DNA of 64,000 bases, from positions 2,068,657 through 2,132,656 of the forward strand of contig JAOSKM010000001.1 in the NCBI GenBank assembly GCA_027493625.1. Direction: 5' to 3'. Made by a program: the position numbers and the translations under genes. Under the pieces are notes generated by a model. The model was not told where the DNA came from. It did not search any database and saw only the letters and a program-made list of their open reading frames with translations. The number at the start of each line of letters is the position of its first letter. The stretch's first letter is position 1. The DNA comes from Planctomycetota bacterium (GTDB lineage: Bacteria > Planctomycetota > UBA8742 > UBA2392). Shown here in pieces: positions 2-56,912 of this stretch.

Positions 2-1459
2 ATAACTCACCTTAGGATCTGCCAAGCGCTTGACGATTATGAATTTCTTGGCCAGTTCCACCAACTTACACATCTGAACCTCAAGTCACCGCCGCGGGAG
101 CGGTTAAGCGTACTAGGAAACTGCAAGAACATTCGCGTCCTGAGCGTCGTGTTCATGGAAAATGACATAGTGGCAGAAATGCCGGTCATGGAATCTGTAG
201 AAGAAGTCTTCTTGAGTGGTGCTGGCGTTGCGGTGGCGTGCGCCATGTTGGCCACTAAGTTCCCCGTCGTTCAGAGAATCACGCTCGACATGACCGGCCT
301 GATTGCGTCAGAACATCTTGAAGCTTTCAGGAAACTGCCACGCTTGAGAGCATTATACATTTACAAATATACTACCACAGAACATGGGATGCAAAACATC
401 GCACAAGTAACGAGTGACGAGGTAGAAGCGTGCGCCAAATTGCCCAACCTTCAAGAACTCCGGCTGGAGGGGCGGGATGGGGATAGCCCCAGCGGATCGT
501 CTCTAGCTAAACTTGGAGCGTTAACAAGTCTCCGCGCCCTCCATCTAATCTTTGGTGGCAGAATCATAACAGAGGCTCTCAAGGGAATCCCGGTTGGGCT
601 TGACACGCTGAGCGTCATCGGTGAGGCAACAGAAGAAGATGTGACTGCACTATTGAAGCAAGTTGGGCGCTTCACAGATCTTCGAGATCTCTCATTTTCA
701 GGGGTCTCCATCAGCGCTCAGGCCCTCGAACAACTGTCTCGAAGCAATAGCAAGATTGAGCGACTCAGCTATAGCGGTAGGTGGCCAAGAAATGCAGCCC
801 AGAGTTTCAAGCGTTTTACCGCGCTAAAATGCTTGCGCATAGATGTAGGCAGGCCGGACTGTCAACTCTCACCATCAGCATTGCAGGTTGTTGCTGACAC
901 GCTAGAGGAGGTGTTTCTGTGGGGACGATACGCTGGCTCTGACTGGGTCGCCGCTTTGGCTGACGCAACACACCTTACTCGGCTGGCGCTCATCAATATC
1001 GCCTTTAAGCCTGAAGACAATGCGTCGGTAGAGAAAGTAATGCAGCGCCTGGAATATGCTACATTTCACATGTGCACGGGATTGCGGACTGCGGGATACC
1101 CGGTCCTATCCGCTTTGAAGAACGTTAAATATCTACAGTTGTTGCACTTCAATGAGTCGTACTCTGGCAGCTACGCTAAAACTGTGGCATCTCTCCCCAA
1201 GTTGACTCATCTTAATGTTGACTGCTCGGCCACCGATGAAGTCGCAATCGGAGCACTCGCTATGATGAGAAGGTTAACCAGTCTTACACTGAGTTACCAG
1301 TCCAGTATTACCACCCCTGCTCTATTCTCACGCTTGCGTGGTACTGAAAGTCTTGAACACCTCCAAATCTGGTCTTTCGCTGCTTGGACACGTAAGGAAT
1401 ACGACGCATTGCAGGAAGTGTTACCTGGGGTAAACTTGCAGATTCCTGCGATGAAATAG
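2..1459 (+). CDS. Leucine-rich repeat (RNI/AMN1-like) protein, 5'-partial (reading frame open to window edge)
   Basis: The frame of ORF 149..1459 stays open back to nt 2 (ITHLRICQALDDYEFLGQFHQLTHLNLKSPP...). Repeated LxxLxL units are present (LPNLQELRLEG, LTSLRALHL, LTHLNVDCS, LTSLTLSY). The region is visibly AT-richer than most of the window. Confidence 0.75.
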   Translation: MTHLRICQALDDYEFLGQFHQLTHLNLKSPPRERLSVLGNCKNIRVLSVVFMENDIVAEMPVMESVEEVFLSGAGVAVACAMLATKFPVVQRITLDMTGLIASEHLEAFRKLPRLRALYIYKYTTTEHGMQNIAQVTSDEVEACAKLPNLQELRLEGRDGDSPSGSSLAKLGALTSLRALHLIFGGRIITEALKGIPVGLDTLSVIGEATEEDVTALLKQVGRFTDLRDLSFSGVSISAQALEQLSRSNSKIERLSYSGRWPRNAAQSFKRFTALKCLRIDVGRPDCQLSPSALQVVADTLEEVFLWGRYAGSDWVAALADATHLTRLALINIAFKPEDNASVEKVMQRLEYATFHMCTGLRTAGYPVLSALKNVKYLQLLHFNESYSGSYAKTVASLPKLTHLNVDCSATDEVAIGALAMMRRLTSLTLSYQSSITTPALFSRLRGTESLEHLQIWSFAAWTRKEYDALQEVLPGVNLQIPAMK

Positions 1460-2917: not shown

Positions 2918-4006
2918 ATGCGCAGGATGATTGTGGCCACTCTGGCCGTCGCGGTCCTTTTCGCGGCCGGCTGCCAGGACCAGGAAGCGCGGAACCAGAA
3001 CGCACGGCTGCAGGCCGAGCTTGACGCCATGAAGGCCAAGCAGGGCAGCGGCGGCAACGATGCACTGCTGGCGCTGCTGGCCAACCAGAACAAGAGCCAG
3101 GACAACGCCGCCCTCGAGCGCAAGCTCAACTCGTTCGGCGAAGACGTCTCGGCCGGGCTGGACAAGATCCAGAAGCAGATCCGGGACAACGACAGCGCCT
3201 CGGGCAAGCGCATGGACGACATCGAGGGCAAGCTGAAGCAGGTCAGCGACCTGCAGGCCACGATCACCACGCTGCGCGGCATGATCGAGTCGCTGGAAAG
3301 CAAGGTGAAGAGCGTCGACCCCAACGAAGTGCTCAACGTCCAGAAAGACCTGATCAACAAGGAAGCCGACCTGCGGCTCGAGAAGCAGCTCAAGGAAGCG
3401 GCGCTGGCCGAGGTGTCCGCCATGAAGGACCAGCTCGCGGCGGCGCAGGCCGAGGTCGAGAACCTCAAGGCCGAGATGGCCGGCCTGCAGGGCGCGGACA
3501 TCAGCAAGCACCCGATGTACCGCGAAAAGGAAGCCGAGAACCGCAAGCTGGCGGGAGATCTGAAGAAGTCCCAGTCCGACTACGAAAACCTGAAGCTGCG
3601 CTACGACGAGCTGGAGGCGCAGCTGCGCAAGGGCGCCAACCCGCCCGAAGAGCAGCCCAAGCCCAGCAACCCCGTGTACGACTTCTCGGGGACGGTCACC
3701 GAGGTCAGCAAGGGCTCCCGCCCGGACGGCCCCAGCTACCTGCTGGTGGGCAGCATCAAGGGCAGCGTGCCCGCCATCGGTACTGAGCTGGTGGTGCTGG
3801 ACGCCCGGAGCAACCTGCTGTGCAAGGTGAAAGTGGTGCGCCACTACCACTTCAACGACAACGACGACATGCCCGTCGAGGAAGTGGGCTGCCAGACCAT
3901 CGACGAGAAATCCAGCCGCCCGGTCGCCAAGGGCGACACCGTGGCCTGGATCAAGGCCAAGGAAGCCGGCGGCGGCGAAAGCAAGGGCGCCGCGGGCGGG
4001 GAATAA
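2918..4006 (+). CDS. Coiled-coil lipoprotein, function unknown
   Basis: Lipobox signal MRRMIVATLAVAVLFAAGC. A long heptad-like Q/E/K/L-rich region follows (KLKQVSDLQATITTLRGMIESLESKVK...), then a globular C-terminal domain. Confidence 0.7.
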   Translation: MRRMIVATLAVAVLFAAGCQDQEARNQNARLQAELDAMKAKQGSGGNDALLALLANQNKSQDNAALERKLNSFGEDVSAGLDKIQKQIRDNDSASGKRMDDIEGKLKQVSDLQATITTLRGMIESLESKVKSVDPNEVLNVQKDLINKEADLRLEKQLKEAALAEVSAMKDQLAAAQAEVENLKAEMAGLQGADISKHPMYREKEAENRKLAGDLKKSQSDYENLKLRYDELEAQLRKGANPPEEQPKPSNPVYDFSGTVTEVSKGSRPDGPSYLLVGSIKGSVPAIGTELVVLDARSNLLCKVKVVRHYHFNDNDDMPVEEVGCQTIDEKSSRPVAKGDTVAWIKAKEAGGGESKGAAGGE

Positions 4007-4043
4007 TCCCTCCCTGGCGGGGCTGAAATCCGTATCAGCAGCA

Positions 4044-4064
4044 GGGGGCGCCCCGCGCGCCCCC
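4044..4064 (+). terminator. GC hairpin downstream of the coiled-coil lipoprotein gene
   Basis: gggggcgc / cccgc / gcgccccc followed by ttgcta. The T-tract is weak. Confidence 0.4.
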
Positions 4065-4103
4065 TTGCTATGCTGTCGGGCGTCATCGTGTTAAGGAAGC
4101 CGC

Positions 4104-6236
4104 ATGAAATTCATCCGCCTCGTGGCCCTGCTGGCCTTGCTGCTGGCGCCGGCACTGCTCTCCGCCCAGGACGACAAGCTCGCTGAAGAAGCCGGCAAGC
4201 TGATCGAGCGCATCGCCAAGCGCCCCGAAAAGGCATGGGATTACGCCTTTGCCCTGCGCCGCCTGGCCGAGGCCGAAGAGGGCGGCGCACTCGTCGGCGA
4301 GTTCGAGAAGCAGCTCGAGCACGAATCCGAGGCCGTACGCATGGTGTGCAGCCAGCTGGTGCTGCTGTACGGCACCCCCGAACTGGCCTACGAAACCTGG
4401 GGCGAGCTGCTGGAAAGCGAAGACAGCGCGATCATCGAGGCCGTCGCCATGATGATCACCGGCGAAGGCCCCGAGGACGAAGAACTGCTGGAGCGCGTAA
4501 AGACGGCCTGGGAGGACTCGTCCGAGCTGTCGCCGGGCGCGCGCACCGCCCTGTGCGAAGCGCTGCTGGTCAATCAGAAGGATGAGCTGGCCCTGGAGCA
4601 GCTGCGTGAATTCCTGTCCTCGCCCGACCACGAGCTGGTGGGGCGCGCCTCGCTGGTGCTGTCCGAGCGCGGCCACCCGGCCGAGGTCGCGGCCCGCATC
4701 GACAACCTCAGCAAAGAGCCCGGCGACATCGGGCGGCTGGCCCGCATCGGGCGCGAGGTGGTGAAGATCGACCAGGCCGTGGAAGATCACAAGTCCGGCA
4801 AGTTCAAGCGCAAGGATTACCTGATCGAGACCGAGATCCGGGCCATCAAGAAGCATTACGTGGATGAGCAGTTCATCTACGCCGAGAAGCCCCAGGCCCT
4901 GAACAGCGAGAACCTGCTCGACAACGCCTGCCGCGCCATGGCCCTGGCCACCGACCGCTACGGCGCCTTCATGACGCGCAAAGAAATCGAGGAGATGAAC
5001 CAGGACCAGGAAGGCAACTACGTCGGCATCGGCGCGCACGTCGCGGTCGGCGACGACGGCCTGATCTACATCACCCAGCCGATCTACGAGGGCCCGGCCT
5101 ACGCCGCGGGCGTTCGCACCGGCGACAAGCTGCTGGGCATCCTGGGCCCCGACGGCAAGCGCATCGACCTCACGACGCTGAGCCTCGAGGAAGGCGTCAG
5201 CCACGTGCGCGGCCCGGAAGGCTCCACCGCAACCATCTTCGTGAAGCGCCGCGGCCATGAGGGCGAGCTGAAGTTCGAGATCCCGCGCAAGGTGGTGCAC
5301 GTGGACACCGCCCTCGAGGAAATGCTGCCCGGCCAGGTCGGTTACGTGCGGCTCACGCGCTTCGGCGGCAACAGCACCAACGACATGAAGGAATCGCTGG
5401 CCAACCTGCGCCGCCAGGGCATGAAGTCGCTGATCCTGGACATGCGCGACAACCCGGGCGGGCAGCTCTCGGCCGTGGTGGAAATCGCCGACATGTTCCT
5501 GCCCAAGGAAGCGCTGATCTCCAGCACCGGCGGGCGCTTCGACCAGTGGCGCAAGAAGCAGGTGTTCCGCAGCCGCGGCGGCGACTACAACGAGATCCCG
5601 ATGGTTTGCCTGATCGACGAAAACAGCGCCTCGGGCGCCGAGATGCTGTCGGGCGCGCTGAAAGACAACAACCGCGCGCAGATTCTCGGGCGCGCCAGCT
5701 TCGGCAAGGGCATCGGCCAGAGCTTCTTCACCGTCGAGAACAGCGGCGGCTCGCGCGTGCTGAAGTGCACGGTGTTCCGCTATTTCCTGCCCAGCGGCAT
5801 CAGCATCGACCGCTACGAGGGCGAGGGCGGCGTGACCCCGCAGATCGAGATCAAGCCCAGCCTGCTCAAGCCCTGGGAGGTCTACGCCATCGACAAGCTG
5901 CGCGCCTCGGGCAAGATCGCCGACTACCTCGACCGCCACTACGCCGGCGCGAAGAAAGCCGAGCTGATGAAGCTGGCCAGCTTCGACGGGCTGAACGCCG
6001 GGCTGTGGCCCGAGTTCGACCGGTTCTACAGCGAGCTGAACACCCAGCTCGCCAAGGACGACGTCCGCCGCGAACTGCGCTACGCCCTGCGCGCCCGCGT
6101 GCAGGACGACCGCGGCGCCGAGTTCACCCAGAACTACCAGGAAGACCCGGGCATCCTGCGCAGCGTGAAGGAACTGTTCGCCAAGACCGGCCAGGACACC
6201 GCAAGCATCCCGGAGTACAAGGCCGTCATGAAGTAA
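4104..6236 (+). CDS. S41 family C-terminal processing peptidase with N-terminal helical-repeat and PDZ domains
   Basis: Signal peptide MKFIRLVALLALLLAPALLSAQ. PDZ-like GIGAHVAVGDDGLIYITQPIYEGPAYAAGVRTGDKLLGI. S41 core LILDMRDNPGGQL, ENSASGAEMLSGALKDNNRAQILGRASFGKG (Ser/Lys dyad context). Confidence 0.9.
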   Translation: MKFIRLVALLALLLAPALLSAQDDKLAEEAGKLIERIAKRPEKAWDYAFALRRLAEAEEGGALVGEFEKQLEHESEAVRMVCSQLVLLYGTPELAYETWGELLESEDSAIIEAVAMMITGEGPEDEELLERVKTAWEDSSELSPGARTALCEALLVNQKDELALEQLREFLSSPDHELVGRASLVLSERGHPAEVAARIDNLSKEPGDIGRLARIGREVVKIDQAVEDHKSGKFKRKDYLIETEIRAIKKHYVDEQFIYAEKPQALNSENLLDNACRAMALATDRYGAFMTRKEIEEMNQDQEGNYVGIGAHVAVGDDGLIYITQPIYEGPAYAAGVRTGDKLLGILGPDGKRIDLTTLSLEEGVSHVRGPEGSTATIFVKRRGHEGELKFEIPRKVVHVDTALEEMLPGQVGYVRLTRFGGNSTNDMKESLANLRRQGMKSLILDMRDNPGGQLSAVVEIADMFLPKEALISSTGGRFDQWRKKQVFRSRGGDYNEIPMVCLIDENSASGAEMLSGALKDNNRAQILGRASFGKGIGQSFFTVENSGGSRVLKCTVFRYFLPSGISIDRYEGEGGVTPQIEIKPSLLKPWEVYAIDKLRASGKIADYLDRHYAGAKKAELMKLASFDGLNAGLWPEFDRFYSELNTQLAKDDVRRELRYALRARVQDDRGAEFTQNYQEDPGILRSVKELFAKTGQDTASIPEYKAVMK

Positions 6237-38691: not shown

Positions 38692-39879
38692 ATGAACGAA
38701 AACGCGCCACAACGCAGGCAGGCGGCCGGGGGGGTTGGCATCGGGCGCCTGTTCGGCATCGAGATCCGGCTGCACTTCAGCGTGCTGCTGATCTTCGGCC
38801 TGGTGGCGTGGAGCCTCGCCGCGCACACCTTTCCAGGCTGGCACCCGGACTGGAGCCCGGCGTTGAGCTGGGGCCTGGGACTGGCCACGGCCGTGCTGTT
38901 TTTCGTGTCGCTGCTGGCGCACGAGTTCGCGCACTCGCTGGTGGCGAAGTGGAAGGGCCTGCAGATTGACCGCATCACGCTGTTCCTGTTCGGCGGCATG
39001 GCTGAGCTGAAGACGCAGCCGAAGACGGCCGGCGTCGAGTTCATGGTCGCGATCGCCGGCCCGCTCATGAGCGTGGCGATCGGCCTGGGCTCAATCGGCC
39101 TGGCGGCGGTGCTGGTGGACGGCGGCTTTGCGCAGCGGCTGGTCGAGAATCCCGAGGCCGCCATGGCGTCGCTGGGCCCGCTGCCCACGCTGCTGCTGTG
39201 GCTGGGGCCGATCAACCTGTTCCTGGCGGCGTTCAACATGATGCCCGGCTTCCCGCTCGATGGCGGGCGCGTGCTGCGCGCGATTCTGTGGGCGATCAGC
39301 GGCGACATGCAGAAGGCCACGCGCTGGGCGGCGTATTCGGGGCGCGTGGTGGCGTTCATGCTGATGGGCCTGGGCGGGCTGGAGATTTTCTTCGGCGGCT
39401 TCATCAACGGATTGTGGCTGCTGTTCATCGGCTGGTTCCTGTTCAGCGCCGCGCGCGCCGCCCAGGCGGAATCCGAGCTGCGCACCAGCCTGCAGGGTCA
39501 CCGGTTGTCAGAGCTGATGGACACCGGCTTCGAGTTCGCCGACGGCAGCGACGACGTCGAAAGCTTCGCGCGCGAACGCCTGATGCACCGCAGCCAGGCC
39601 GTGTGGCCGGTACTCGAGGGCGGGCAGCTGGTCGGCATCGTCACCATCGACGACATCGCGCAACTGCCGCCCGAGGCACGGCCGCACACGCGGCTGGCGC
39701 GGCTGGCCAAGCCGCTGCACGAGGTGGATTTCGTGGAGTACAACCTGCCCGGCCCGGAGATCCTGAAGCGCCTGGCCGAAAGCGACTACGGCGTGGTGCT
39801 GGTGGTGAAGGACAACCAGATAGTCGGGCTGCTGAAGCAGTCGGACGTGCTGCGCTGGTTGACCATTCACACAGCGTAG
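38692..39879 (+). CDS. Site-2 protease family (M50) zinc metalloprotease with C-terminal CBS pair
   Basis: HEFAHSLVA (HExxH), NLFLAAFNMMPGFPLDGGRVLRA, and C-terminal CBS-like WPVLEGGQLVGIVTIDD / VVLVVKDNQIVGLLKQSDV. Confidence 0.9.
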   Translation: MNENAPQRRQAAGGVGIGRLFGIEIRLHFSVLLIFGLVAWSLAAHTFPGWHPDWSPALSWGLGLATAVLFFVSLLAHEFAHSLVAKWKGLQIDRITLFLFGGMAELKTQPKTAGVEFMVAIAGPLMSVAIGLGSIGLAAVLVDGGFAQRLVENPEAAMASLGPLPTLLLWLGPINLFLAAFNMMPGFPLDGGRVLRAILWAISGDMQKATRWAAYSGRVVAFMLMGLGGLEIFFGGFINGLWLLFIGWFLFSAARAAQAESELRTSLQGHRLSELMDTGFEFADGSDDVESFARERLMHRSQAVWPVLEGGQLVGIVTIDDIAQLPPEARPHTRLARLAKPLHEVDFVEYNLPGPEILKRLAESDYGVVLVVKDNQIVGLLKQSDVLRWLTIHTA

Positions 39880-39945
39880 CCCGGCCGCGTAAGCGCCGGG
39901 CATAAGGCGGAATCGGGGACGAGGACGATTGGAGCGCCTTCGAAG

Positions 39946-40206
39946 CTGTTGAACAGCAAATTACCAATAACCAATTTTCAATTACCAATTGAGGCGACGT
40001 CGTTAACTGTGAGCAATACGGCCCTCGCTGATTGCAGTTCGTTCACGACTTGAAAGGCAACTGCGGGAACCACGAAGGGCCACGAAGAACCACGAAGGCA
40101 ATCAGCCAAGGACCAGCTCTTCGTGATTCTTCGTGACCTTCGTGGACAACCACATTTGCAGTCGCCGGTAATTGAAAATTGGTTATTGGTAATTTGCTGT
40201 TCAACA
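39946..40206. repeat. MITE-like element: perfect 40-bp AT-rich inverted repeats enclosing a CACGAAG-decamer hairpin
   Basis: 39946-39985 tgttgaacagcaaattaccaataaccaattttcaattacc is the exact reverse complement of 40167-40206. Inner hairpin: gaaccacgaagggccacgaagaaccacgaagg...ctcttcgtgattcttcgtgaccttcgtgg. Confidence 0.85.
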
Positions 40207-40273
40207 CCGCTTCGATGCAACCCCAACGCAGCGGCACGCGCACCAGCCTCATGCCCGACGCTTACGCATCGGG

Positions 40274-41743
40274 CTACCCTCGGTTCACATATCGGCCGTG
40301 GTTCTGTTCCGCGAGATCCTGCATCATCTGGTGCGCGGCATCTTTGCCTACCGCGATGGCGTGAATCACCACCTTGCGGAAAGTGTTGATGCGCGAGATG
40401 TCGGCCAATATCGCCTCCGGCTTCACGTAGCGCCCGTTGCCGATGCTGCCCCACTTCGGGTGCACGTAGCCTTCGCCGGTGCTGTCGTCGCTCCAGCTCG
40501 GCTCACCGTCGGTCATGAAGAAGATGGTGTCCACACCCTCCAGCATCGCCTTGGGGTCCAGCGCCGGGTCTTCCTTCACCTTGCCCTTGCGCACCACCGT
40601 GAAGGCCTGCGTCAGCGCGCCATGGATGTTGGTGCCGCCCTCGGCCTTCAGGCCGTAGACCGCGATGCTGAACTTGCGCTTGTTTTCGTCGGTCGCCGGC
40701 ACCAGCTCGGACTCGTCGGGCAGGATCAGCTGGTGCTCCTTGCTGTAGGTGATGATGTTGAAGTGGTAGTCCTCGGGCAGGTTCTTGAGCGTCCACAGCA
40801 ACTCCACCTTCGCGAGGTCCAGCTTGGTCTTCACCTGGCTGTAGTCCGGCCCGTTTTCCTTGCCTTTGCCCGTCACCGGGTTCTTGGCGAACTCCATGTC
40901 GGCCGGCCATTCCATGCTGCCGCTGACGTCGATCACGAACAGCACCCGCGTGCCCACAGCGATCGCGTCAAAGAACGCCACCGTCTTGCCCGCACCCGCG
41001 TCTTCGGCCACGTTGCCCGCCAGCCAGGCGCGCCACCACCCGGCGCTCAGGTAAGCCGGCTGGCCCGAGATGCGGCTGAGGCCCAGGGCCGCGAAGTACT
41101 TGATGCGCTCGTCGCCGCTGGCTTCAAGCACGTGGATCAGCGCTTCCAGATACGGCTTCTGCGCTTCGCGGTCTTCGCCCTGGGGGCACAGCTTGCGCAC
41201 GGCCGTGATGGCGGCCAGGTTCTCGAACACGTTGCCCTTGTCGTCCTCGGGCCTGTAGGCGTTGACGATGGCCAGGGCCAGGGGCGCCAGGTCGTCGCGC
41301 GCGGACTCGCCGATGGCTTCGAGGGCGCAGGCGCGCAGGGAGACGTTTTTCTTGTCGGCCTTGTCGAGGGCTTTTTTCAGCGTGCCGGTGCCCTCGGGCG
41401 TGTTGCCGAGCGCCAGGCCGCACAGGACCCAGCAGGCGGCGAACATCTCTTCGGTTTTCTTGCAGGCCAGCACCGAGCTGTCGGCCTGGTTGAGCCCCTC
41501 GGCGCCCTTGAGGTCGGAGAACGCGCGGCCCATTTCACGGCCGGCAAAGCCGTCGCGCTCGGCGACCAGGGCCTCCATGACGGCCTTGACGGATTTCTTG
41601 TCGCCGTCGGCCAGCAGGCGTTTAGCGCCTTCGACACGATTGTCGGGCGAGGCGTCCTTGAGCAGGGCCACATGCTCAGCCTTCTGGGCAAAGGCCAGGC
41701 AGGTCAACGAAACAACCACCCCAAGCGCAAGCAAAGCACGCAT
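40274..41743 (-). CDS. Secreted HEAT-like + VWA domain protein
   Basis: Signal MRALLALGVVVSLTCLAFAQ. MIDAS VLFVIDVSGSM, GGTNIHGALTQAF, FFMTDGEPS. Paralog of the frameshifted 13090..15053. Confidence 0.8.
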   Translation of the reverse strand: MRALLALGVVVSLTCLAFAQKAEHVALLKDASPDNRVEGAKRLLADGDKKSVKAVMEALVAERDGFAGREMGRAFSDLKGAEGLNQADSSVLACKKTEEMFAACWVLCGLALGNTPEGTGTLKKALDKADKKNVSLRACALEAIGESARDDLAPLALAIVNAYRPEDDKGNVFENLAAITAVRKLCPQGEDREAQKPYLEALIHVLEASGDERIKYFAALGLSRISGQPAYLSAGWWRAWLAGNVAEDAGAGKTVAFFDAIAVGTRVLFVIDVSGSMEWPADMEFAKNPVTGKGKENGPDYSQVKTKLDLAKVELLWTLKNLPEDYHFNIITYSKEHQLILPDESELVPATDENKRKFSIAVYGLKAEGGTNIHGALTQAFTVVRKGKVKEDPALDPKAMLEGVDTIFFMTDGEPSWSDDSTGEGYVHPKWGSIGNGRYVKPEAILADISRINTFRKVVIHAIAVGKDAAHQMMQDLAEQNHGRYVNRG

Positions 41744-41915
41744 AGCAGGTCCCCCGATCACCAGCCCAGTGCAAGCAGGTTAGCAAGCCAGGGGTGCGAA
41801 GTGTCACGACACCGTCAAATCCTTGGCATGGGCGAGGAAGCACAGCTGCAGCTGACCCGCCTTTTACTTTGAACGGCATCAGTTCTCGGGTTCAGCAACA
41901 GATAGGAACCGCTGG

Positions 41916-44900
41916 TCAGTCTCGGCGACCCTCATAGCCTGCTGGCGGAGTTTTTCGTCCCGTTTCAAGGGGTTTCTCCTTGAGATGTCTAAACGCCAAC
42001 ATATCTAACTCAAAGATGCTCACTCCGACCTGATTCGCACCATGTAGGTGCGTGATGAGCCGATTGTATTGCTCCGAGTACGGCGCTTGAGCAGTAGAGC
42101 CACCGTACTGGCCGCTGTTCACGAGCACTACTGGCTGATACATATGGTATTGTAGCGCTGTTGCCATGGTATCGAATGTATTCGTATCTCTGTTTAATGC
42201 TGAAATGACCATACAGTCGCTTTTATCTCGTAAGTCCGCTGCCAGCTTCAAGTCGGTCGCATCGTAACATATTGCGGCAGTGATCCGCGCTTTGGTTGTT
42301 CGGCGCTCACCCAACTCTACGAATATTTGACATGGTCGGTGCCCCTTTACCCCTGCCTTGGCCTCCCACGCTGTGACATGTTGCTTGCCTTGAAACAGTG
42401 GAACCAGTATCCGACCGGACCGAGTCTCTTGACGCACAATCCACATGCCGGTGTTCGCGACATCAGCGGAGTTGGGATGCTGGATAAAAGTGAGACCGGC
42501 GAAGATGGTCGCTCCCGTGGCGTCCGATAGGCGTGCCAAGTACTCCGAATCGCTCGGATGTATGGAGAGTTCGGGAAACACGATCAAATCCAAACCTGTT
42601 CGCTTGCGCGCGCCACGATCAAACACTGAGGAAGCAATCAGCTGTCGGTGGACCAGATGACACATGGACGCAACATGAGACGTGTGCTTGGCCCGCTCGT
42701 CTGGAGTGAAGTACAGTGGATTTTTTGAATTAAAGTCTGTATCACTAGGAAAGGCTGTCTGAACTAACGCAACTCGGAATTTGTCCTTCTCCTGTCGCTC
42801 CTTACCGTCGGATGAGAACAAGTAGCCTGGCATCTCCGACTGACGGCAGTATAGCTGCGCCTGCTTTGCCATACGGCGCCTTACAATGGCTAGCAAGTCG
42901 CTCGGCTTGTTCACTAACTCAATCCCCTCCATCTCCCGACTGGTCAACTCCAGACCCGGCCATTTCAAAAGATGCAACAGCAGCTCGTTGAACCACGAAG
43001 ATAGCGGGATAGGCTCCTTGCCAATTCCTCTCAATGCGCTTTGGAGTCCATGTTGCCGTTTGAAGACTACAGAACGTATTCCGCGATACGCCTGAGGCTC
43101 AGTCGGAAGTTCATAGCGTCCTGTGGACCAGTCATCTGCGCCAACGATCGCGGACCGCAGAAGTCGACCAAGCGCATATGCCCAATGCCAAGATGGTGCA
43201 GACCATACGGGGGGTTCGAAGGCTTTGTCCAAACCACCACGGGTACGGCGGATACGCTTTAGAATGACTCGAAGCGTCACCTTTGGATTCTGGACCCTAG
43301 CCCAAGACGAGCACTTCAGGTCTACATCTCTCATTCGGAGGTTTGTAAGCCGTTTTGGGTTTTCCAGCGATTCGGACAACAACCCGTCGCATAGCTTAAG
43401 GAGTGCGTTCTCCTGCATGAATGGATTGTCGGCTAGCCCACTAACGACGGACAGTCTCACATTTGCGTGTGAAGCGATCCCAGACTCTGCAAGCGTCGTG
43501 TCCTTGTCAAAGCCTGGTAAGTTGGCTGGTATCATACTCAAAAAGGCTGGCTTAGTCTTCTCCAAACACCGCCTTGCGGCTACCAGTAACTTGGCATCGA
43601 CATGCCATATGGTTTGGATCGCTGATCTTTGTTGTGCAGCACTGAGTGGATCGAGATACTCCTTCAGCCAAGCCGAAAACCCCTCTTCATCGCGACGCAG
43701 ACGCTGAACAACCAACGCAAGGGCGAGCCGGTCGTCGACAGTTGACTTGGTCGTCGACTCGTTTGCTAACACGGCGTGTAGGTGTCTGTATAGAGCAAGT
43801 TCAGAATCCTTGCCGACTTTCGCAACGGAATGCTGAACACCTAAGAACAGAGCCGCTTGCTGCAGCACATACCAAGGGACATCTGATCTCCGAAGTAGGC
43901 GTCTCGACCATTGCTCCAATACTTTACGATACCCCGGGATGTCTGCTGTATCTGGATAGACATTCGCGTCTGCATACCCCGTCTCTACTGACCCGGCCCG
44001 AAGAATATCCGCTGTGGCGTAACACGCTATCGCCTTGATCGCAGGTTCTGTCGCATTCAGTTCTAACTCCAATGCCTCAACCACGGGCTGCAGTATAGTT
44101 GGATCTGGAAAGAGATCGAAGGCCCGACGCAGCACAACGGTGAGCGCGGGATTCCTGGCCCAGCAATATACTAGCTTTCTAGCAACTGCCTCCATTTCGT
44201 GGTCTACCGCGTCTCTGGACTCTAGTTCTTGATTATTGGCTGTTTTAACGGCGACGGACACGTCCGGCGTGGTCATGGCGCGACGTGAGCGAAACACGCT
44301 AACCAATCGGTGGGCCGCATACCGCTTAATGGTGTCATCCCTAACGTCGACCTTCGGCGTCGCAATGCGAGACAACTCCAGATTGTTGACTTCATCCTCG
44401 TCCGATCCTAGTGCGTCTGCTAGCGATACAAGCTGACTCAGATTGGTGGTAACCTCCCGTAGCGTCTGATAGTCGGGAACAGTACTAATCTGACCCTGCA
44501 ACGACTTCATGTATTCGGAAGCTCGCCCTTGACGTGAAAAGTCTTGCCAAGCAGTCATTTCAGTCTTGCGCTCATTGATCTCAAGTTTCGAATGCTTCCC
44601 ATTGGGATAGGCATCCAAATGCGCCTTCATCCATCCCGTAACGCTGTCATGTAGTTCCTTTGGTGAGTGCCGCTCGAAGTATCTCTCAGGAACAGATACT
44701 ACAATCCGCATGTCGTCGACATAGCGCGCGTAGTCCAATAATCTGAATTGAGGAGTCCCCTGATCTGATCCGATCTGACGGCCGATCTGCCTGTCTAGCC
44801 GCCACAGATGGACGTTGGCAAAGAACCCACTCGCAACAAGCCCCTGAGGAAGGCCCTTCGGTGGATATCCCATGGCCAACTGCTCGAAGACATCCACGTC

Positions 44901-45740
44901 GTTCTTGTGCCACTCCCAGCCAAACACAGCATCCACGCGCTCCCAGAATTCCAGCGTGGATTTTGCCTTGGGGTCATACTCCCGATCGTGATGCACCGCA
45001 AATCTACGGTAAATCTCTTCCATCCGTTTGCATAAACGGCTCCGATCGATCTTGTCGTAGAACTTTGTAAGATCGAACTTGACAACGAACAGCTCAACGT
45101 CGGGTGTTCGCCGTGACCAATCACGACATACGTCGGCTGGGCGAGAGAGGAACCTCTGGTAGTCAACAAAGTACTGTGAGTATGTGTTTGTAGCACCCCA
45201 TCTGTGTTTCGCCCTCTTTCCTACTCCCGGCACGTCCTGCCAATCGCAGAACAGTCTATTGCCATAGCTATAGACCTTCTCCCGTTGTGCGTCGAGATAG
45301 CTGGCTTGATCTGTACACCCCTGCATTGTCTCTACAGCGTCTGCGAGACACAGCATCACGGCGGTGGCAACGGTTTGTTCTCGAATCTCGACATGCGCCA
45401 ATGGACGAAGCGAAACCGCATCTGTGCCTTCGGGCCGCCAAGAGGTTGTGGGGACACCGGGGACCCCCTCGGCCTCGAATCTCCAAGTACGGTTCTTTGG
45501 AGCCGGCACTAAACGCAACGGCGCCTGCCGAAACGTCGCTCTTCGGAGTGACTTGCTCCAGACTGGAATCAATTTGTGGGCGAAAACCTGAGTGCGATCC
45601 AACGCCAGCACGTCTGCATACCAGTTGTAGCGGCGGATGTAGTAATCGGACTTCTTCCATGCCTGCGCCAACACAGCCTCGTCCGACAAGAGGGTAATGT
45701 CTGGGCGAAGGTTTTCGTAGTTACGCGCAAAGTGTCCCAT
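41916..45740 (-). CDS. Reverse transcriptase / helical-repeat / nitrilase (carbon-nitrogen hydrolase) fusion, DRT type 1 (UG1-like) architecture
   Basis: The ORF runs to 45824 (1302 aa); the likely start is M29 at 45740. RT motif A FVVKFDLTKFYDKID (aa 246-260), motif B GLPQGLVASGFFANVHL (aa 324-340), and motif C YARYVDDMRIVV (YVDD = nt 44712-44723). The nitrilase region has FRVALVQTAF, LIVFPELS (Glu at nt 42570-42572), FQGKQH (Lys at 42384-42386) and AAICYDATD (Cys at 42267-42269). The gene is clearly AT-richer than its flanks. Confidence 0.85.
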   Translation of the reverse strand: MGHFARNYENLRPDITLLSDEAVLAQAWKKSDYYIRRYNWYADVLALDRTQVFAHKLIPVWSKSLRRATFRQAPLRLVPAPKNRTWRFEAEGVPGVPTTSWRPEGTDAVSLRPLAHVEIREQTVATAVMLCLADAVETMQGCTDQASYLDAQREKVYSYGNRLFCDWQDVPGVGKRAKHRWGATNTYSQYFVDYQRFLSRPADVCRDWSRRTPDVELFVVKFDLTKFYDKIDRSRLCKRMEEIYRRFAVHHDREYDPKAKSTLEFWERVDAVFGWEWHKNDVDVFEQLAMGYPPKGLPQGLVASGFFANVHLWRLDRQIGRQIGSDQGTPQFRLLDYARYVDDMRIVVSVPERYFERHSPKELHDSVTGWMKAHLDAYPNGKHSKLEINERKTEMTAWQDFSRQGRASEYMKSLQGQISTVPDYQTLREVTTNLSQLVSLADALGSDEDEVNNLELSRIATPKVDVRDDTIKRYAAHRLVSVFRSRRAMTTPDVSVAVKTANNQELESRDAVDHEMEAVARKLVYCWARNPALTVVLRRAFDLFPDPTILQPVVEALELELNATEPAIKAIACYATADILRAGSVETGYADANVYPDTADIPGYRKVLEQWSRRLLRRSDVPWYVLQQAALFLGVQHSVAKVGKDSELALYRHLHAVLANESTTKSTVDDRLALALVVQRLRRDEEGFSAWLKEYLDPLSAAQQRSAIQTIWHVDAKLLVAARRCLEKTKPAFLSMIPANLPGFDKDTTLAESGIASHANVRLSVVSGLADNPFMQENALLKLCDGLLSESLENPKRLTNLRMRDVDLKCSSWARVQNPKVTLRVILKRIRRTRGGLDKAFEPPVWSAPSWHWAYALGRLLRSAIVGADDWSTGRYELPTEPQAYRGIRSVVFKRQHGLQSALRGIGKEPIPLSSWFNELLLHLLKWPGLELTSREMEGIELVNKPSDLLAIVRRRMAKQAQLYCRQSEMPGYLFSSDGKERQEKDKFRVALVQTAFPSDTDFNSKNPLYFTPDERAKHTSHVASMCHLVHRQLIASSVFDRGARKRTGLDLIVFPELSIHPSDSEYLARLSDATGATIFAGLTFIQHPNSADVANTGMWIVRQETRSGRILVPLFQGKQHVTAWEAKAGVKGHRPCQIFVELGERRTTKARITAAICYDATDLKLAADLRDKSDCMVISALNRDTNTFDTMATALQYHMYQPVVLVNSGQYGGSTAQAPYSEQYNRLITHLHGANQVGVSIFELDMLAFRHLKEKPLETGRKTPPAGYEGRRD

Positions 45741-45888
45741 GCATCGGTTCCTTCCGTTGCAGACTGATCCGGCGCTGCCTTCGCTGCACCGATAGGAGTG
45801 AGCCCACGTCACCTTAGATGGCAATCTCTGTTATGAGAAGGCGGAATGTCTCGCTACCGATGCCCAAGCCGAATGCGCAAAGTCGCCG

Positions 45889-48092
<2,204 letters not shown>

Positions 48093-52835: not shown

Positions 52836-53083
52836 ATCAGTCAGCAGGCAAACAGTCCAAAGCGACACCTGAACCAGCCTGGAATGAAGCATCCACGAGG
52901 AGACAACAGGATAGAAGGACCACGAGCCGCTGAATTTAGGGCATCATAAAGGGCCCTGACACATGTGACTGCTGTTTCACGAATGGCGAAATGGACTCTT
53001 TTCCTCTTCTCCGTACTTCGGCACTCCGCTATTCTACGCCGCCCATGTTTTATTCAGAAGGCAACGTCTACGCGGAGCGAAAA

Positions 53084-55615
53084 ATGCGGGTTTGCGTACT
53101 GGTGGCATGTTTCATCTCGATCCTCATGGCTAGCTGTGCAGGTGAGGGGGATAGCGGAGGCGGAAGTTCGGGAGGTGGGGGCGGATCGCCGACTGGTTCT
53201 ATTTCGGGTACAATCACGCCCTTCTCAGAGTATCCGGTTGTCACCGGCTCTGAGGTAACTGACTCCACTGCTGCGAGTCCGCTGCAAGTCACTGGTCCAA
53301 AGGCTGGGGAACTTCTCTTCCTACTTGGAACTCTTTCCAGCAGTGACACCGCAGACCGCGTGACGTTCACCGAAGGCAACGCCGCGACTTACAATGTCAA
53401 GATCAGCTGGCTTGACGGAACAAACCAAGACGTGGACCTCACAGTCAGCAGATTCGATGGTGTAAGCACGACGAATCTGCTGAGCCTGAATGGCACTTCC
53501 AACCCGGAATTTGGAAACTTCGTCGTCGCCGGCGGTGCCGGAGCCACAATCATATTCGATCTCACGTTGTTCGCCGGTGCAGGCACGCAGTGGCGAATGG
53601 ACGTGACGGTGCTGAGCGGAAGCCCTCTGATGATGATGCAGCCAGGGCCTAGCTATCCAAAGAGCGAGTACGACGCTATGGAGGTTGCACTTGCGGGGTA
53701 TGAGGCTGTTCCGGACCGTTTGCTGGTAACCTTCAAAAAGAACGTCAGTCTGCAGGCCTGCTTTGACATCCTCGCCTCGGTCGGCTTTACCCCCGTTCGC
53801 ACGCTTTCCGGTGGAGCAATCGTCGCGCAGAGACTGCTTCCTAGATCGCTCGATCCGCTGCGTTCAACGAAGCCGCACCTAGTAGAGTTGGCAAATCTCT
53901 CCGCGCACCTCTCACTCCATCCCGACGTCGTAGTTGCTGAGCCCGACTTCATATGCGAGCACTCACTCACCCCGAATGACCCCCATTTCTCTGCGTACCA
54001 GTCGTGGCATTACAACGCTCTGAACCTTCCAGCAGCTTGGAACATCACAACCGGCTCCGCATCGGTGATTGTGGCTGTGATTGATACCGGCGTCGTGCTT
54101 GGACATCCGGACCTCGCTGGACGCCTCATCGGTGGCTACGACTTTATCTCCGATCCACACAACGCTCTCGACGGTAATGGAATTGACAGCAACCCGGATG
54201 ATCCGGGCGATAAGTCCGGACAAGGGTCCAGCTTTCATGGTACTCACGTGGCGGGGACCATTGGCGCCGCCTCGAACAATGGCGTTGGAGGTGCGGGTGT
54301 TGACTGGAATTGCAGAATCATGCCGCTTCGGGTGCTGGGCGCAGCTGGCGGCGCTCAAAGCGACATCGCCGAGGCTGTCCTGTATGCCGCTCGCCTAACT
54401 AACGTCAGCGGCACCTTGCCGCCTAATCGCGCACACGTGATAAACATGTCGCTTGGCGGTAAGGGCAGTACTTCCGTGTACCAGAACGCAATCACTGCAG
54501 CATACAACGCCGGCTGCACTATCATTGCCGCCGCAGGAAACGACGCCCAACAGGACAACACACCGAACTTCCCTGCGGCCTATGCCGAGGTGATCGCAGT
54601 TGGAGCGATCAACCGAAACTATGCGAGAGCCGTCTACAGCAACACCGCCAGCGGAACTACATTATGCGCACCAGGCGGCCAACAATCGTTCCCATTCTCG
54701 AATCAAGACGGCGTACTCAGCACTTGGCGAGACGACACCGCGACGCCAGCTGTTAACAAGTACCAATGGCTACAGGGTACGTCGATGGCGGCGCCACACG
54801 TGGCAGGTGTCGCAGCGCTGATGCTCGCCGTAAATGGCGCACTTACGCCATCGAACATTCGGACCATCCTGACCACGACCGCTCTTGACCTCGGTGCGTC
54901 AGGTCCCGACGCGGAGTACGGATTCGGACTCGTTAGGGCAGAAGCTGCGCTGGTGGCCGCAGGCGGAACGCTTCCCGCGAACCCGCCCACTGCGGCTGTC
55001 ACCAACAGTATCGTGCTCGTGCCTGCGGGAGCGACGACAGCGTACACCAGCGTCGTGAACGTCGGCGGAGGCACTTTAAACGTTACTAACCCCCAAGCCC
55101 TGCACTTTGGCACGGAGAACTGGTTAGGCGTGTCGCTACTGCAGAACGGCACCCAGGTCTTGGTCGTTTTGTCAATTAACCAAGCTCTCTTAGCGAACGG
55201 TAATCTGTACTACGCGCTCGCCGCAGTCTCCACAAACGACGCCAGCGCTCCTGTTGTCCTAATCGCGGTCCTTGTGAACAAACTGACACCCAAGGCCGCT
55301 ACGTATCAAATTCGGGTCCGCGCAATCAACGTAGTTACCGGTCAGGTCGATGGAGAAGTGTTCACCAGCGCGACTTCCTCATTCAATTACTCAATCCAAG
55401 GATTGAATCCGGACGACTATCTGGTAATCGGTTGGGTCGACCGGGACACAAGTGGCTCACTGACGCACGACGACTTGGTCGGCGCGTATCCGTCAATGAC
55501 CATCCCAACGCCAGTGACGGTGCTCAGTGGATCGACTACGTCGGCCGTCAACTTCCCGCTGGAGAGGCACACGGTCGGAATTACAGCAGTAGGGGCAGCT
55601 CAGGCTGTTCCATAG
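53084..55615 (+). CDS. S8 (subtilisin) family serine peptidase lipoprotein
   Basis: Lipobox MRVCVLVACFISILMASC. Asp VAVIDTGV, His HGTHVAGTIGA, Ser GTSMAAPHVAGVAAL. The ORF starts at 52991, and the M at 53084 fits the signal peptide. AT-richer than neighbouring genes. Confidence 0.9.
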   Translation: MRVCVLVACFISILMASCAGEGDSGGGSSGGGGGSPTGSISGTITPFSEYPVVTGSEVTDSTAASPLQVTGPKAGELLFLLGTLSSSDTADRVTFTEGNAATYNVKISWLDGTNQDVDLTVSRFDGVSTTNLLSLNGTSNPEFGNFVVAGGAGATIIFDLTLFAGAGTQWRMDVTVLSGSPLMMMQPGPSYPKSEYDAMEVALAGYEAVPDRLLVTFKKNVSLQACFDILASVGFTPVRTLSGGAIVAQRLLPRSLDPLRSTKPHLVELANLSAHLSLHPDVVVAEPDFICEHSLTPNDPHFSAYQSWHYNALNLPAAWNITTGSASVIVAVIDTGVVLGHPDLAGRLIGGYDFISDPHNALDGNGIDSNPDDPGDKSGQGSSFHGTHVAGTIGAASNNGVGGAGVDWNCRIMPLRVLGAAGGAQSDIAEAVLYAARLTNVSGTLPPNRAHVINMSLGGKGSTSVYQNAITAAYNAGCTIIAAAGNDAQQDNTPNFPAAYAEVIAVGAINRNYARAVYSNTASGTTLCAPGGQQSFPFSNQDGVLSTWRDDTATPAVNKYQWLQGTSMAAPHVAGVAALMLAVNGALTPSNIRTILTTTALDLGASGPDAEYGFGLVRAEAALVAAGGTLPANPPTAAVTNSIVLVPAGATTAYTSVVNVGGGTLNVTNPQALHFGTENWLGVSLLQNGTQVLVVLSINQALLANGNLYYALAAVSTNDASAPVVLIAVLVNKLTPKAATYQIRVRAINVVTGQVDGEVFTSATSSFNYSIQGLNPDDYLVIGWVDRDTSGSLTHDDLVGAYPSMTIPTPVTVLSGSTTSAVNFPLERHTVGITAVGAAQAVP

Positions 55616-55755
55616 TTCCGCGACGACGCGTTGGCGGGAACTGGAAACGACAGGTCAGGCCTTGTCGGTTGTTGAATCGGGCAAATCGATAACACTCGCT
55701 TGCTGGGGGCTTGGGAGGGGTTCCGGCCCTTGTCATCCGCGTGAGCATCCGCTCC

Positions 55756-55783
55756 GTAGGGACACGCTGCCGCGTGTCCCTAC
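55756..55783. terminator. Hairpin just downstream of the queG stop
   Basis: Perfect 12-bp stem gtagggacacgc / gcgtgtccctac with a 4-nt loop. Confidence 0.5.
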
Positions 55784-55796
55784 GCGCGTTCATGGT

Positions 55797-56912
55797 TCAC
55801 TGGCTTTGCAGCGCGTCGATGATCTGCTCTCGCAGCGCTTCGCTGGTTACGTACTTCTGGGCGCGGGCCAGCTGGCCTCTGGCCTTCGGGCCGTACTGGG
55901 TGAGGGCCCAGATTACGGCCTCCTGCACGGTTTCGTCTTCGGTCATCAGGGCCTGCTCCAGGGCGGGCAGCAGGCTTTCGTCCTTGAGGTTGCCTGCCAC
56001 TACGGCCGCGTTGCGTTTCAGGCGCGCTACGCCGGCGCGCTCGAGGGGCGTGCCTTTGAGGCGCTGTTCCAGGTGCTCGGGCTTGCCGGTGAAGATGCGC
56101 GCGAGCGTCAGGCCCGACAGCCCCTCCGGCACGTCGGGCGCGAGCGCCGGCGCCTTGCGGTTCCAGGGGCAGACCTCGTTGCAGATGTCGCAGCCGAACA
56201 GCCACTGGCCGATACCCGGGCGCAGGGCGGGCTCGATGGGCCCCTGGTGCTCGATGGTCAGGTAGCTGATGCAGCGCGAGGCATCCAGCTGGTAGGGCGC
56301 GGGGAACGCCTGCGTGGGGCAGGCCTCGAGGCAGCGGGTGCAGGTGCCGCAATGGTCGGTGACCGGCGCGTCGGGCGGCAGCTCGAGGCTTGTCACCACC
56401 AGGGCCAGCAGCGTCCAGCTTCCGCGCATGGGGTCGATCAGCATGGTGTTCTTGCCCACCCAGCCCAGGCCGGCGCGGGCGGCGTGTTCGCGCTCAAGGA
56501 ATGCGCCGGTGTCCTGGTACCACATGGCCTTGCACTCGGGGCCGCCGATGCGCTTGATTTCATCCTCGAGCTGCTTCAGTTTGCCGGCGTAGACCTCGTG
56601 GTAGTCGGCCGCGCGGGCGTAACGCGCGATGCCGGGCAGCATCGACTTGGCGGGCAGCTTGGCCGGCAGCTGGTGCGGGTAGTCGATGGTTAGCATGACG
56701 TACGAGCGCGCCCAGGCGTAGCGGTTGCGGATGTCCTTGCGCGTGGCGGCGTATTTGGCGAGCCAGTCCATGGTGCCGTGGCGGCCCTGGGCCAGCCAGG
56801 CGTCGAAGTAGTCGGCATGGGCCGTGGCCTCGGCGGCGCAGCACGCGACGTGCTGGAAGCCGAGCCGTTTGGCTGCTTTGCGGATGGCGGATTTGAGCGT
56901 GTCGTTAACCAT
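55797..56912 (-). CDS. queG: tRNA epoxyqueuosine(34) reductase
   Basis: CGTCTRCLEACPTQAF, CISYLTIEH, GCDICNEVCPWN (two 4Fe-4S motifs), N-terminal WLAQGRHGTMDWL, and a C-terminal HEAT-like tail. Confidence 0.9.
   Translation of the reverse strand: MVNDTLKSAIRKAAKRLGFQHVACCAAEATAHADYFDAWLAQGRHGTMDWLAKYAATRKDIRNRYAWARSYVMLTIDYPHQLPAKLPAKSMLPGIARYARAADYHEVYAGKLKQLEDEIKRIGGPECKAMWYQDTGAFLEREHAARAGLGWVGKNTMLIDPMRGSWTLLALVVTSLELPPDAPVTDHCGTCTRCLEACPTQAFPAPYQLDASRCISYLTIEHQGPIEPALRPGIGQWLFGCDICNEVCPWNRKAPALAPDVPEGLSGLTLARIFTGKPEHLEQRLKGTPLERAGVARLKRNAAVVAGNLKDESLLPALEQALMTEDETVQEAVIWALTQYGPKARGQLARAQKYVTSEALREQIIDALQSQ

Follow-up and report, generated by a model that had tools for sequence, protein, structure and literature searches.

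A Divergent DRT1 Gene, Predicted to Act by Abortive Infection, in a Small Core-Genome Defense Hotspot of a Planctomycetota Bacterium

Defense-associated reverse transcriptases (DRTs) of type 1 (DRT1; also UG1 or Drt1a) form a known family with a known mechanism. Here, we report drt1, a DRT1 gene in a 64,000-nucleotide (nt) stretch of a Planctomycetota bacterium (GenBank assembly GCA_027493625.1, contig JAOSKM010000001.1, positions 2,068,657 to 2,132,656), which we call the window and by whose coordinates features are cited. Very probably, drt1 is a functional abortive-infection gene that was acquired horizontally, most likely by homologous recombination, into a variable hotspot between a kinase gene and a VWA gene. 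The host belongs to a Planctomycetota lineage known from activated-sludge metagenome-assembled genomes (MAGs), and the gene extends DRT1 to these GC-rich, little-studied bacteria; the novelty added to what is already established is the small core-genome defense hotspot only. An earlier reading of the window, made from its letters without database searches (the sequence-only reading), had proposed a DRT1/UG1-like fusion of reverse transcriptase (RT), helical repeats and nitrilase.

The PADLOC Drt1a profile (PDLC03745) matched the protein with 1,314.7 bits over residues 10 to 1269, covering profile positions 5 to 1176 of 1176, and a second PADLOC Drt1a model scored 584 bits. The next different RT family in PADLOC, RT_UG5-nitrilase, reached 132 bits through the nitrilase part only (residues 1046 to 1270), and membership in UG5 was rejected on that comparison. 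A sequence search of the Protein Data Bank (PDB) returned a single match, 9YFD, titled "Defense-associated reverse transcriptase 1," over residues 6 to 1271 (E value, 3.3e-160). The C-terminal 294 residues alone matched 9YFD residues 947 to 1227 (E value, 8.7e-68), with C1158 falling on C1116 of that structure. On this sequence evidence, the gene is an intact but fairly divergent DRT1 (UG1, Drt1a) of the stand-alone form. The identity given in the sequence-only reading is borne out; its class 1 label is not, as Neville et al. (Nat Struct Mol Biol 2026, PMC13275509) place DRT1/UG1 in class 3 of the UG/Abi RTs and class 1 holds AbiK, AbiA and Abi-P2.

Similarity to other RTs was weak and generic. 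NCBIfam profiles of Drt2, group II intron RT, Drt3a, retron RT and AbiA scored 23 to 33 bits at cutoffs of 200 to 390 (Drt2, 33 bits; group II intron RT TIGR04416, 31.8 bits, cutoff 300; retron RT NF038233 [St85], 27.6 bits, cutoff 235), and Pfam RVT_1 matched weakly (31 bits, residues 218 to 397). These scores are what could be said for drt1 encoding the RT of a group II intron, a retron or a diversity-generating retroelement, and for the inserted DNA being that mobile or diversity-generating element. They lie 10 to 40 times below the cutoffs and the Drt1a score, however, and in the 39- to 49-kb region no RNA family of Rfam was found, group II introns included. There are no template or variable repeats of a diversity-generating retroelement and no maturase or endonuclease domain, and the C-terminal third is a nitrilase; we consider the chance of this explanation negligible.

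The mechanically called minus-strand open reading frame (ORF) spans 41916 to 45824 (1,302 amino acids [aa]) and opens with TTG. The likelier start is the ATG at 45740, which yields 1,274 aa and has GGAAGGA 8 to 9 nt upstream; it is favored by the alignments with homologues and with 9YFD, in which residue 6 is the first aligned position of both proteins. The uninterrupted ORF of the sequence-only reading (41916 to 45740) is therefore real, with its ATG start supported, and the peptides quoted from it (FVVKFDLTKFYDKID, GLPQGLVASGFFANVHL, YARYVDDMRIVV, LIVFPELS, FQGKQH and AAICYDATD) all occur in the translation, YVDD lying exactly at 44712 to 44723. Its "C1186" is indeed the catalytic cysteine, which becomes C1158 when counted from the ATG, as residues are here.

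The GC content of drt1 is 0.533 and that at third codon positions (GC3) is 0.572, against 0.65 to 0.69 and 0.85 to 0.92 in the adjoining genes and a window mean GC of 0.648. The contrast with the neighbors is very strong and well past chance, and a GC3 of 0.57 against 0.85 to 0.92 marks drt1 as foreign; the earlier estimate of about 50% GC had the contrast right and lay slightly below the measured 53%. A near-identical protein (1 residue different) was found on 12 contigs in a lookup made with the cluster representative P0001, and the 10 contigs retrieved came from 10 different samples, in all of which the kinase and VWA genes flank drt1 as they do here. The sole difference within the inserted DNA between the window and the other copies is nt 44392 (T in the window, A in the others), which replaces V at residue 450 (codon 44391 to 44393), within the disordered priming loop, by E; E450 is private to the window sequence.

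The gene and the parts of its product are as follows.

41916 to 45740, minus strand: drt1 (Drt1a) coding sequence, 1,274 aa plus stop (PADLOC Drt1a profile; PDB 9YFD).
44541 to 45518, minus strand: RT domain (palm and fingers), about residues 75 to 400 (RVT_1; invariant motifs; 9YFD alignment).
44226 to 44540, minus strand: flexible priming loop, about residues 401 to 505 (S419 conservation; low predicted local distance difference test [pLDDT] values in parts).
42801 to 44243, minus strand: alpha-helical repeat domain, about residues 500 to 980 (AlphaFold2 model; 9YFD alignment).
41919 to 42788, minus strand: nitrilase-superfamily effector domain, residues 985 to 1274 (9YFD alignment; conservation; Foldseek).
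41937 to 41954, minus strand: C-terminal lid motif K1263-T-P-P-A1267-G1268 (9YFD alignment; conservation).

Conservation was counted in an alignment of the drt1 protein with 115 full-length homologues (116 sequences). Motif A D223 (45072 to 45074) and motif C Y340-V-D342-D343 are each conserved in 116/116, with D342/D343 aligned to D324/D325 of 9YFD. The predicted priming serine, S419 (44484 to 44486), is likewise found in 116/116, in the context I-S-x-x-P-D, and lines up with S402 of 9YFD (G-T-S-S-I-P) once the alignment is anchored on the following proline. In the nitrilase domain, E1057 (42570 to 42572), K1119 (42384 to 42386), E1126 (42363 to 42365) and C1158 (42267 to 42269) are invariant (each 116/116). 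The lid residue K1263 (115/116) aligns to K1219 of 9YFD and A1267 (116/116) to A1223; P1266 is also invariant (116/116). Mutagenesis has shown D324/D325, S402, C1116, K1219 and A1223 of 9YFD each to be required for defense (PMC13275509). Judged from the alignment, all residues proven essential in DRT1 are retained here, invariant or nearly so among the 116 homologues.

An AlphaFold2 model of the monomer (residues 75 to 1274) reached a pLDDT of 83.6 and a predicted template modeling score of 0.85. Residues 500 to 980, approximately, are nearly all helical in the model and align to the same region of 9YFD. Low-confidence segments were parts of the priming loop, model positions 818 to 832 (residues 892 to 906) and the C-terminal tail. 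The first two match roughly the parts unresolved in 9YFD (residues 382 to 478 and 837 to 846; PMC13275509). The third segment, the tail, is resolved in 9YFD, where it forms the swapped lid. The PDB set available to Foldseek ended in April 2026 without 9YFD, and the fold was therefore compared against other structures. The C-terminal domain matched amidases, beta-alanine synthase and N-carbamoylputrescine amidohydrolase (probability, 1.0), and the RT plus helical part matched AbiA, AbiK, DRT6, UG15 and DRT9 better than it did group II, LINE and telomerase RTs. The C-terminal domain thus has, as modeled, a nitrilase-superfamily fold, in agreement with its alignment to the DRT1 nitrilase and its intact Glu-Lys-Glu-Cys set, so that the nitrilase proposed in the sequence-only reading is confirmed by alignment and predicted fold alike.

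DRT1 synthesizes DNA without a template, primed on Ser402, and the product is A-rich single-stranded DNA (ssDNA) of about 17 to 30 nt that stays covalently bound to the protein (PMC13275509). This work, of June 2026, supersedes the earlier statement that the template and product of the class were not worked out. RT-dead DRT1 is monomeric; assembly into nitrilase-mediated tetramers, which in turn stack as filaments, is driven by the DNA adducts (PMC13275509). In the filament, a swapped C-terminal tail shuts the nitrilase pocket, leaving the effector assembled yet dormant (PMC13275509). T4 escape mutations fall in the Dda helicase. Activation depends on this helicase, although Dda alone does not suffice, and the nitrilase serves as the effector in the ensuing abortive infection (PMC13275509).

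We assign the same mechanism to the DRT1 of the window because the residues essential in that study are conserved. The RT domain (D342/D343) would prime on the hydroxyl of Ser419 in the flexible loop and polymerize short A-rich ssDNA without a template, keeping it covalently on the protein. The DNA adducts would then trigger nitrilase-mediated tetramers and, subsequently, filament stacking, in which the tail (K1263...A1267) of one protomer would cover the nitrilase pocket (E1057/K1119/E1126/C1158) of another and hold the effector dormant. Release of this lock would presumably fall to a phage replication function, which in T4 is the Dda ssDNA helicase together with other factors. The freed nitrilase would act on some essential metabolite, killing or arresting the infected cell ahead of phage release. 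What we infer from homology for this host is the enzymatic activities, the assembly of filaments and the protection from phages. The genomic context is one of defense, with defense genes at the same junction in relatives and restriction-modification genes around the nearest DRT1 relatives.

About 18% of drt1 loci carry an adjacent membrane-protein gene, drt1b (PMC13275509). The inserted DNA here has one gene, and the ORFs at 41676 to 41879 (minus strand) and 45846 to 46289 (plus strand) and the VWA neighbor have no PADLOC match. The neighbors are core genes, kept whether cargo is present or absent, and leave no room for drt1b; with no room and no defense-model match around drt1, we assign it to the stand-alone form.

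Comparison with empty sites delimits the insertion as follows.

41831 to 45888, minus strand: inserted island, 4,058 nt, GC 0.535, with one gene and short noncoding ends.

The boundaries are 45888, directly after the kinase stop codon, and approximately 41831, close to the composition switches estimated from the letters. As had also been claimed, the neighbors are a VWA/HEAT gene and a kinase gene; the former (40274 to 41743, minus strand) encodes a secreted protein and adjoins the island downstream of drt1, and the latter (45889 to 48085, minus strand) encodes a Ser/Thr kinase with TPR repeats and adjoins it upstream. At the same junction, related contigs (numbered L) carry the following, with the identity of the VWA protein in parentheses.

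L016 (VWA 99%; flanks 96.6 to 97.7% nt identity): empty, 167 nt of GC-rich hairpins.
L012 (VWA 96%): empty, 220 nt.
L021 and L022 (VWA 96%): empty, 284 nt.
L015, 6444 to 9557 (VWA 73%): 1,037-aa DS8 antiphage protein (metallophosphatase-STAND), PDC-S60.
L011, 6762 to 9851 (VWA 96%): 1,029-aa TrlF-family, Ppl-like ATPase, 596 bits.
L014, 6372 to 9655 (VWA 84%): 822-aa TPR protein and 272-aa protein without a family match.
L013, 6742 to 9920 (VWA 86%): four small unannotated ORFs and, in the opposite orientation, a further ORF with weak similarity to transposases.

The empty sites lie in contigs with about 90 to 97% flank nt identity and VWA proteins 96 to 99% identical. Their presence in near-conspecific and related contigs directly supports horizontal acquisition as a single-gene island, as the sequence-only reading had it. 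The island is a recent insertion between two core genes, in a local defense hotspot. The cargo in L015 scored 868 bits with NCBIfam DS8 (cutoff, 790) and 303 bits with PADLOC PDC-S60. All cargos are GC-poor (0.51 to 0.59 versus 0.64 to 0.65 in the flanks), and the load per genome is about 3.2 to 4.1 kb: a single gene in the window, L011 and L015, two genes in L014 and several ORFs in L013. No defense function is recognized in two of these five cargos, and the hotspot was seen in only a few MAGs and contigs, all from the same clade. A metagenome scan with the VWA protein found one locus, the empty site of L016; more distant VWA orthologues (62 to 73% identity) have lost kinase synteny and are hence silent on the hotspot.

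No tRNA gene was found in the window; the island carries no integrase, transposase or recombinase, and its junctions show no target duplication or direct repeat. An integrative element was rejected on these grounds in favor of homologous exchange. In two DRT1-bearing contigs whose flanks are 4 to 5% diverged (L001 and L005), a 5.0-kb tract (41382 to 46389), made up of the island and an arm of about 450 to 500 nt on either side, is identical to the window. As the island has no recombinase of its own, acquisition by homologous recombination via the flanking core genes is most likely. DRT1 homologues occurred in 7 of 72,556 plasmid records (full-length matches of 30 to 34% identity and one short 54% fragment), and the phage collection held none; neither search led to a donor.

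Core-genome defense hotspots, with variable cargo between conserved genes, have been described in Pseudomonas aeruginosa, Escherichia coli and Vibrio. The kinase-VWA site resembles them in its conserved flanks, its alternation of empty sites with varied low-GC cargo (DRT1, DS8, TrlF/Ppl-like), its lack of a mobility gene and a zero-divergence tract that takes in the flanking arms. Unlike the hotspots of those species, it is small and so far known from one Planctomycetota clade. The matched empty and occupied sites make it a clean natural case of a single defense gene in a core-genome hotspot without mobility genes.

The protein is divergent within its family, as had been suggested from the letters: the closest non-self homologue among 5.8 billion clusters is 45% identical, and identity to the other members of the 116-sequence alignment is 36 to 46%. 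Three small insertions were noted (GVPG at 92 to 95, AMGYP at 289 to 293 and RRTRG at 831 to 835). Non-conserved loop residues of DRT1 matter little (PMC13275509).

Several observations count against a functional DRT1 acquired by homologous recombination. Of 291 positions with at least 90% conservation, 24 deviate (family median, 5), among them C338A beside YVDD and G1155A beside the catalytic cysteine. The residues that stabilize the pseudoknot in 9YFD, R1210, I1212 and Y1215, are H1252, K1254 and P1257 here. Pfam CN_hydrolase did not match the drt1 protein at an E value of ≤0.1, so that the identity of the nitrilase was set by its alignment to 9YFD and to the family and by its fold. A scan for sigma-70-like promoters and minus-strand terminators found none in the island ends, with counts no higher than in shuffled sequences. 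As for the route of entry, the zero-divergence tract fits cassette exchange or a very recent sweep or mixed-strain assembly, and the case for homologous exchange is entirely one of pattern.

The same deviations, the undetected promoter- and terminator-like signals, the pseudoknot contacts not kept and a codon usage unadapted to the host would suit a decaying or repurposed relic, recognizably DRT1 and inactive in this host because its promoter was lost or regulated filaments no longer form. A 3.8-kb ORF without stop or frameshift would be unexpected in such a relic, however, and the residues proven essential are all present. As many or more deviations occur in 8/115 other family members, and one sequence persists across 10 samples with a single substitution, in a disordered loop. 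The sigma-70 consensus on which the scan was based is uninformative for Planctomycetota. A likely kinase terminator hairpin, AGCCCAGCCCGCAAGGGCTGGG, which is the first of the empty-site hairpins, is kept in L013 and lost in the window, which makes read-through transcription from the kinase gene into drt1 plausible. We regard a relic as quite improbable and retain a functional DRT1 as the preferred explanation. To judge from the alignment, none of the listed deviations hits a residue of known essential role, and the filament lock of this DRT1 could differ in detail from that of 9YFD.

The ends of the island and the adjoining native DNA were examined in relation to a possible noncoding RNA (ncRNA).

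45741 to 45888, minus strand: upstream noncoding end, 148 nt, GC 0.58, with the Shine-Dalgarno-like GGAAGGA (sequence, folding, Rfam, empty sites).
41831 to 41915, minus strand: downstream noncoding end, 85 nt, GC 0.565 (sequence, folding).
41744 to 41830, minus strand: native DNA with the leader/promoter region of the VWA gene, bordering the hotspot on its right-hand side (alignment of the window with L011 to L016).

The upstream flank measures 148 nt, as first reported; the 154 nt given for the downstream flank reaches only to the GTG of the mechanically called VWA ORF, and the gap to the VWA ATG at 41743 is 172 nt. Of this gap, the 87 nt adjoining the VWA gene are native, conserved in all relatives and outside the island. 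Here lies a VWA-proximal motif, GGATTTGA-N7-9-(C/G)GTGACACTT(C/T)GCACC, which all five genomes with cargo have in full. In the two empty sites compared, L012 and L016, the GTGACACTTCGCACC half is retained; the GGATTT half is a variant in L012 and missing in L016. The right junction of the island is just upstream of the GGATTTGA-N7-9-GTGACACTTCGCACC motif.

The noncoding 148 nt and 85 to 172 nt that accompany or adjoin drt1, and the ncRNAs described for several other DRT families, are what speaks for the cognate ncRNA suggested earlier for the flanks. Under such a scheme, the RT would be templated as in class 2 DRTs (DRT2, DRT9, DRT10) or retrons, copying an ncRNA from 45741 to 45888 or 41744 to 41915 into cDNA. 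Both flanks fold no better than shuffled sequences, however (z scores of −0.51 for 45741 to 45888 and +0.04 for 41744 to 41915). A search of 39 to 49 kb against Rfam at an E value of ≤1 found nothing in the flanks, the sole match being a subthreshold small RNA at 39759 to 39883, outside the island. In L019 and L020, two close relatives, drt1 overlaps both neighbors by 4 nt and has no noncoding flank, which leaves no space for an ncRNA, and the 87 nt beside the VWA gene do not belong to the island. Template-free biochemistry, unstructured flanks and these overlaps together led us to reject a flank-encoded ncRNA, which would be unexpected for this class; a templated RT is accordingly a highly improbable account of drt1, and protein-primed synthesis remains the expected mode.

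Among known systems, the closest in architecture is the DRT1 of 9YFD (PMC13275509), which shares RT, alpha-helical repeats and nitrilase over its full length, together with the catalytic Asp pair, the priming Ser, the Glu-Lys-Glu-Cys set and the lid K...PAG. Like it and most family members, the DRT1 reported here stands alone, without drt1b. It differs in its Planctomycetota host from activated sludge, in its 24 deviations and three insertions, and in its changed pseudoknot contacts. The DRT type 1 system of Klebsiella pneumoniae NCTC9143 is of the same Drt1a family and has two genes, one encoding the membrane protein Drt1b; unlike that system, which needs the adjacent transmembrane gene, the island has a single gene. 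In the account given in PMC13436386, the NCTC9143 system of Gao et al. 2020 needs both RT and nitrilase for defense. Combining an RT with a nitrilase-superfamily effector is a trait shared by UG5-large/DRT11 and the further RT-nitrilase systems of class 3 (UG5, UG6, UG29), as are an abortive-infection phenotype and related nitrilase lineages (PMC13436386). The class 1 proteins AbiK, AbiA and Abi-P2 also carry out protein-primed, template-independent DNA synthesis and have a similar RT and alpha-repeat fold (Foldseek probability of 1.0 to 8OZ7, 7R07 and 7R08); they have no nitrilase and belong to another clade, with an AbiA sequence score of 23 to 35 bits.

A divergent sequence that keeps all essential residues helps to separate the conserved mechanism from lineage detail such as the pseudoknot contacts. 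For the main DRT1 questions (nitrilase substrate, full activation pathway), this copy is no better placed than existing models. The hotspot also flags a few unannotated candidate defense genes in related MAGs, namely, the cargos of L014 and L013. A stronger proposal, that the kinase-VWA site is a recombinase-free defense exchange site peculiar to this activated-sludge clade and trades cargo by homologous recombination via the core genes on either side, that the L014 and L013 cargos are new antiphage systems and, separately, that the DRT1 lock differs, strikes us as rather unlikely.

Further observations concern the hotspot and its surroundings. The empty kinase-VWA region (L012, 9717 to 9936; L016, 6770 to 6936) consists of a cluster of four short, GC-rich hairpins with GTGGCAC...GTGCCAC as its bounds. 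L012 and L016 carry the whole block in opposite orientations, and it looks like a repetitive extragenic palindrome or bacterial interspersed mosaic element. In L023 (positions 2928 to 6116; VWA protein 73% identical, kinase nonadjacent), a 1,062-aa SpoIIE/PP2C-NACHT/STAND-TPR protein and a 195-aa ORF are encoded upstream of the VWA gene; this could be a further defense-like cargo at the VWA-proximal position. The core kinase (45889 to 48085, minus strand) matched many PD-T4-6 defense-kinase models with 67 to 116 bits over the kinase domain; the match was judged generic kinase similarity, more likely than a role in defense signaling, in a core gene conserved in all relatives whatever their cargo. 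At 47707, 49520, 49997 and 51449, the window lacks single bases found in the near-identical L001, L002 and L003, and the loss at 47707 breaks the 732-aa kinase ORF into 586 aa and 148 aa. These losses are probably homopolymer or assembly errors and not true pseudogenization.

Between a convergent M50/CBS protease gene (38692 to 39879, plus strand) and the VWA gene, positions 39887 to 40267 form a low-GC block (about 0.53) of nested inverted repeats, with perfect 40-nt arms (39947 to 39986 and 40167 to 40206) 180 nt apart and outer 22-nt arms (39887 to 39908 and 40246 to 40267). Eight of the 10 retrieved metagenome contigs end inside this block, at 40177 or 40241. L012 aligns to part of it in both orientations, and it could be an invertible element or one resembling a miniature inverted-repeat transposable element.

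Two other genes of the window are low in GC. An 874-aa subtilase (52991 to 55615, plus strand; Peptidase_S8, 192 bits; PADLOC "subtilase," 93 bits; GC 0.576, GC3 0.63) lies in a second low-GC stretch (53000 to 56000) that shows zero divergence from L001, whereas adjacent native genes differ by several percent; it may be a further recent acquisition. A 436-aa leucine-rich-repeat protein (149 to 1459, plus strand; GC 0.507, GC3 0.53), without a PADLOC match, lies in a GC-poor zone (1 to 2000) and is probably foreign too.

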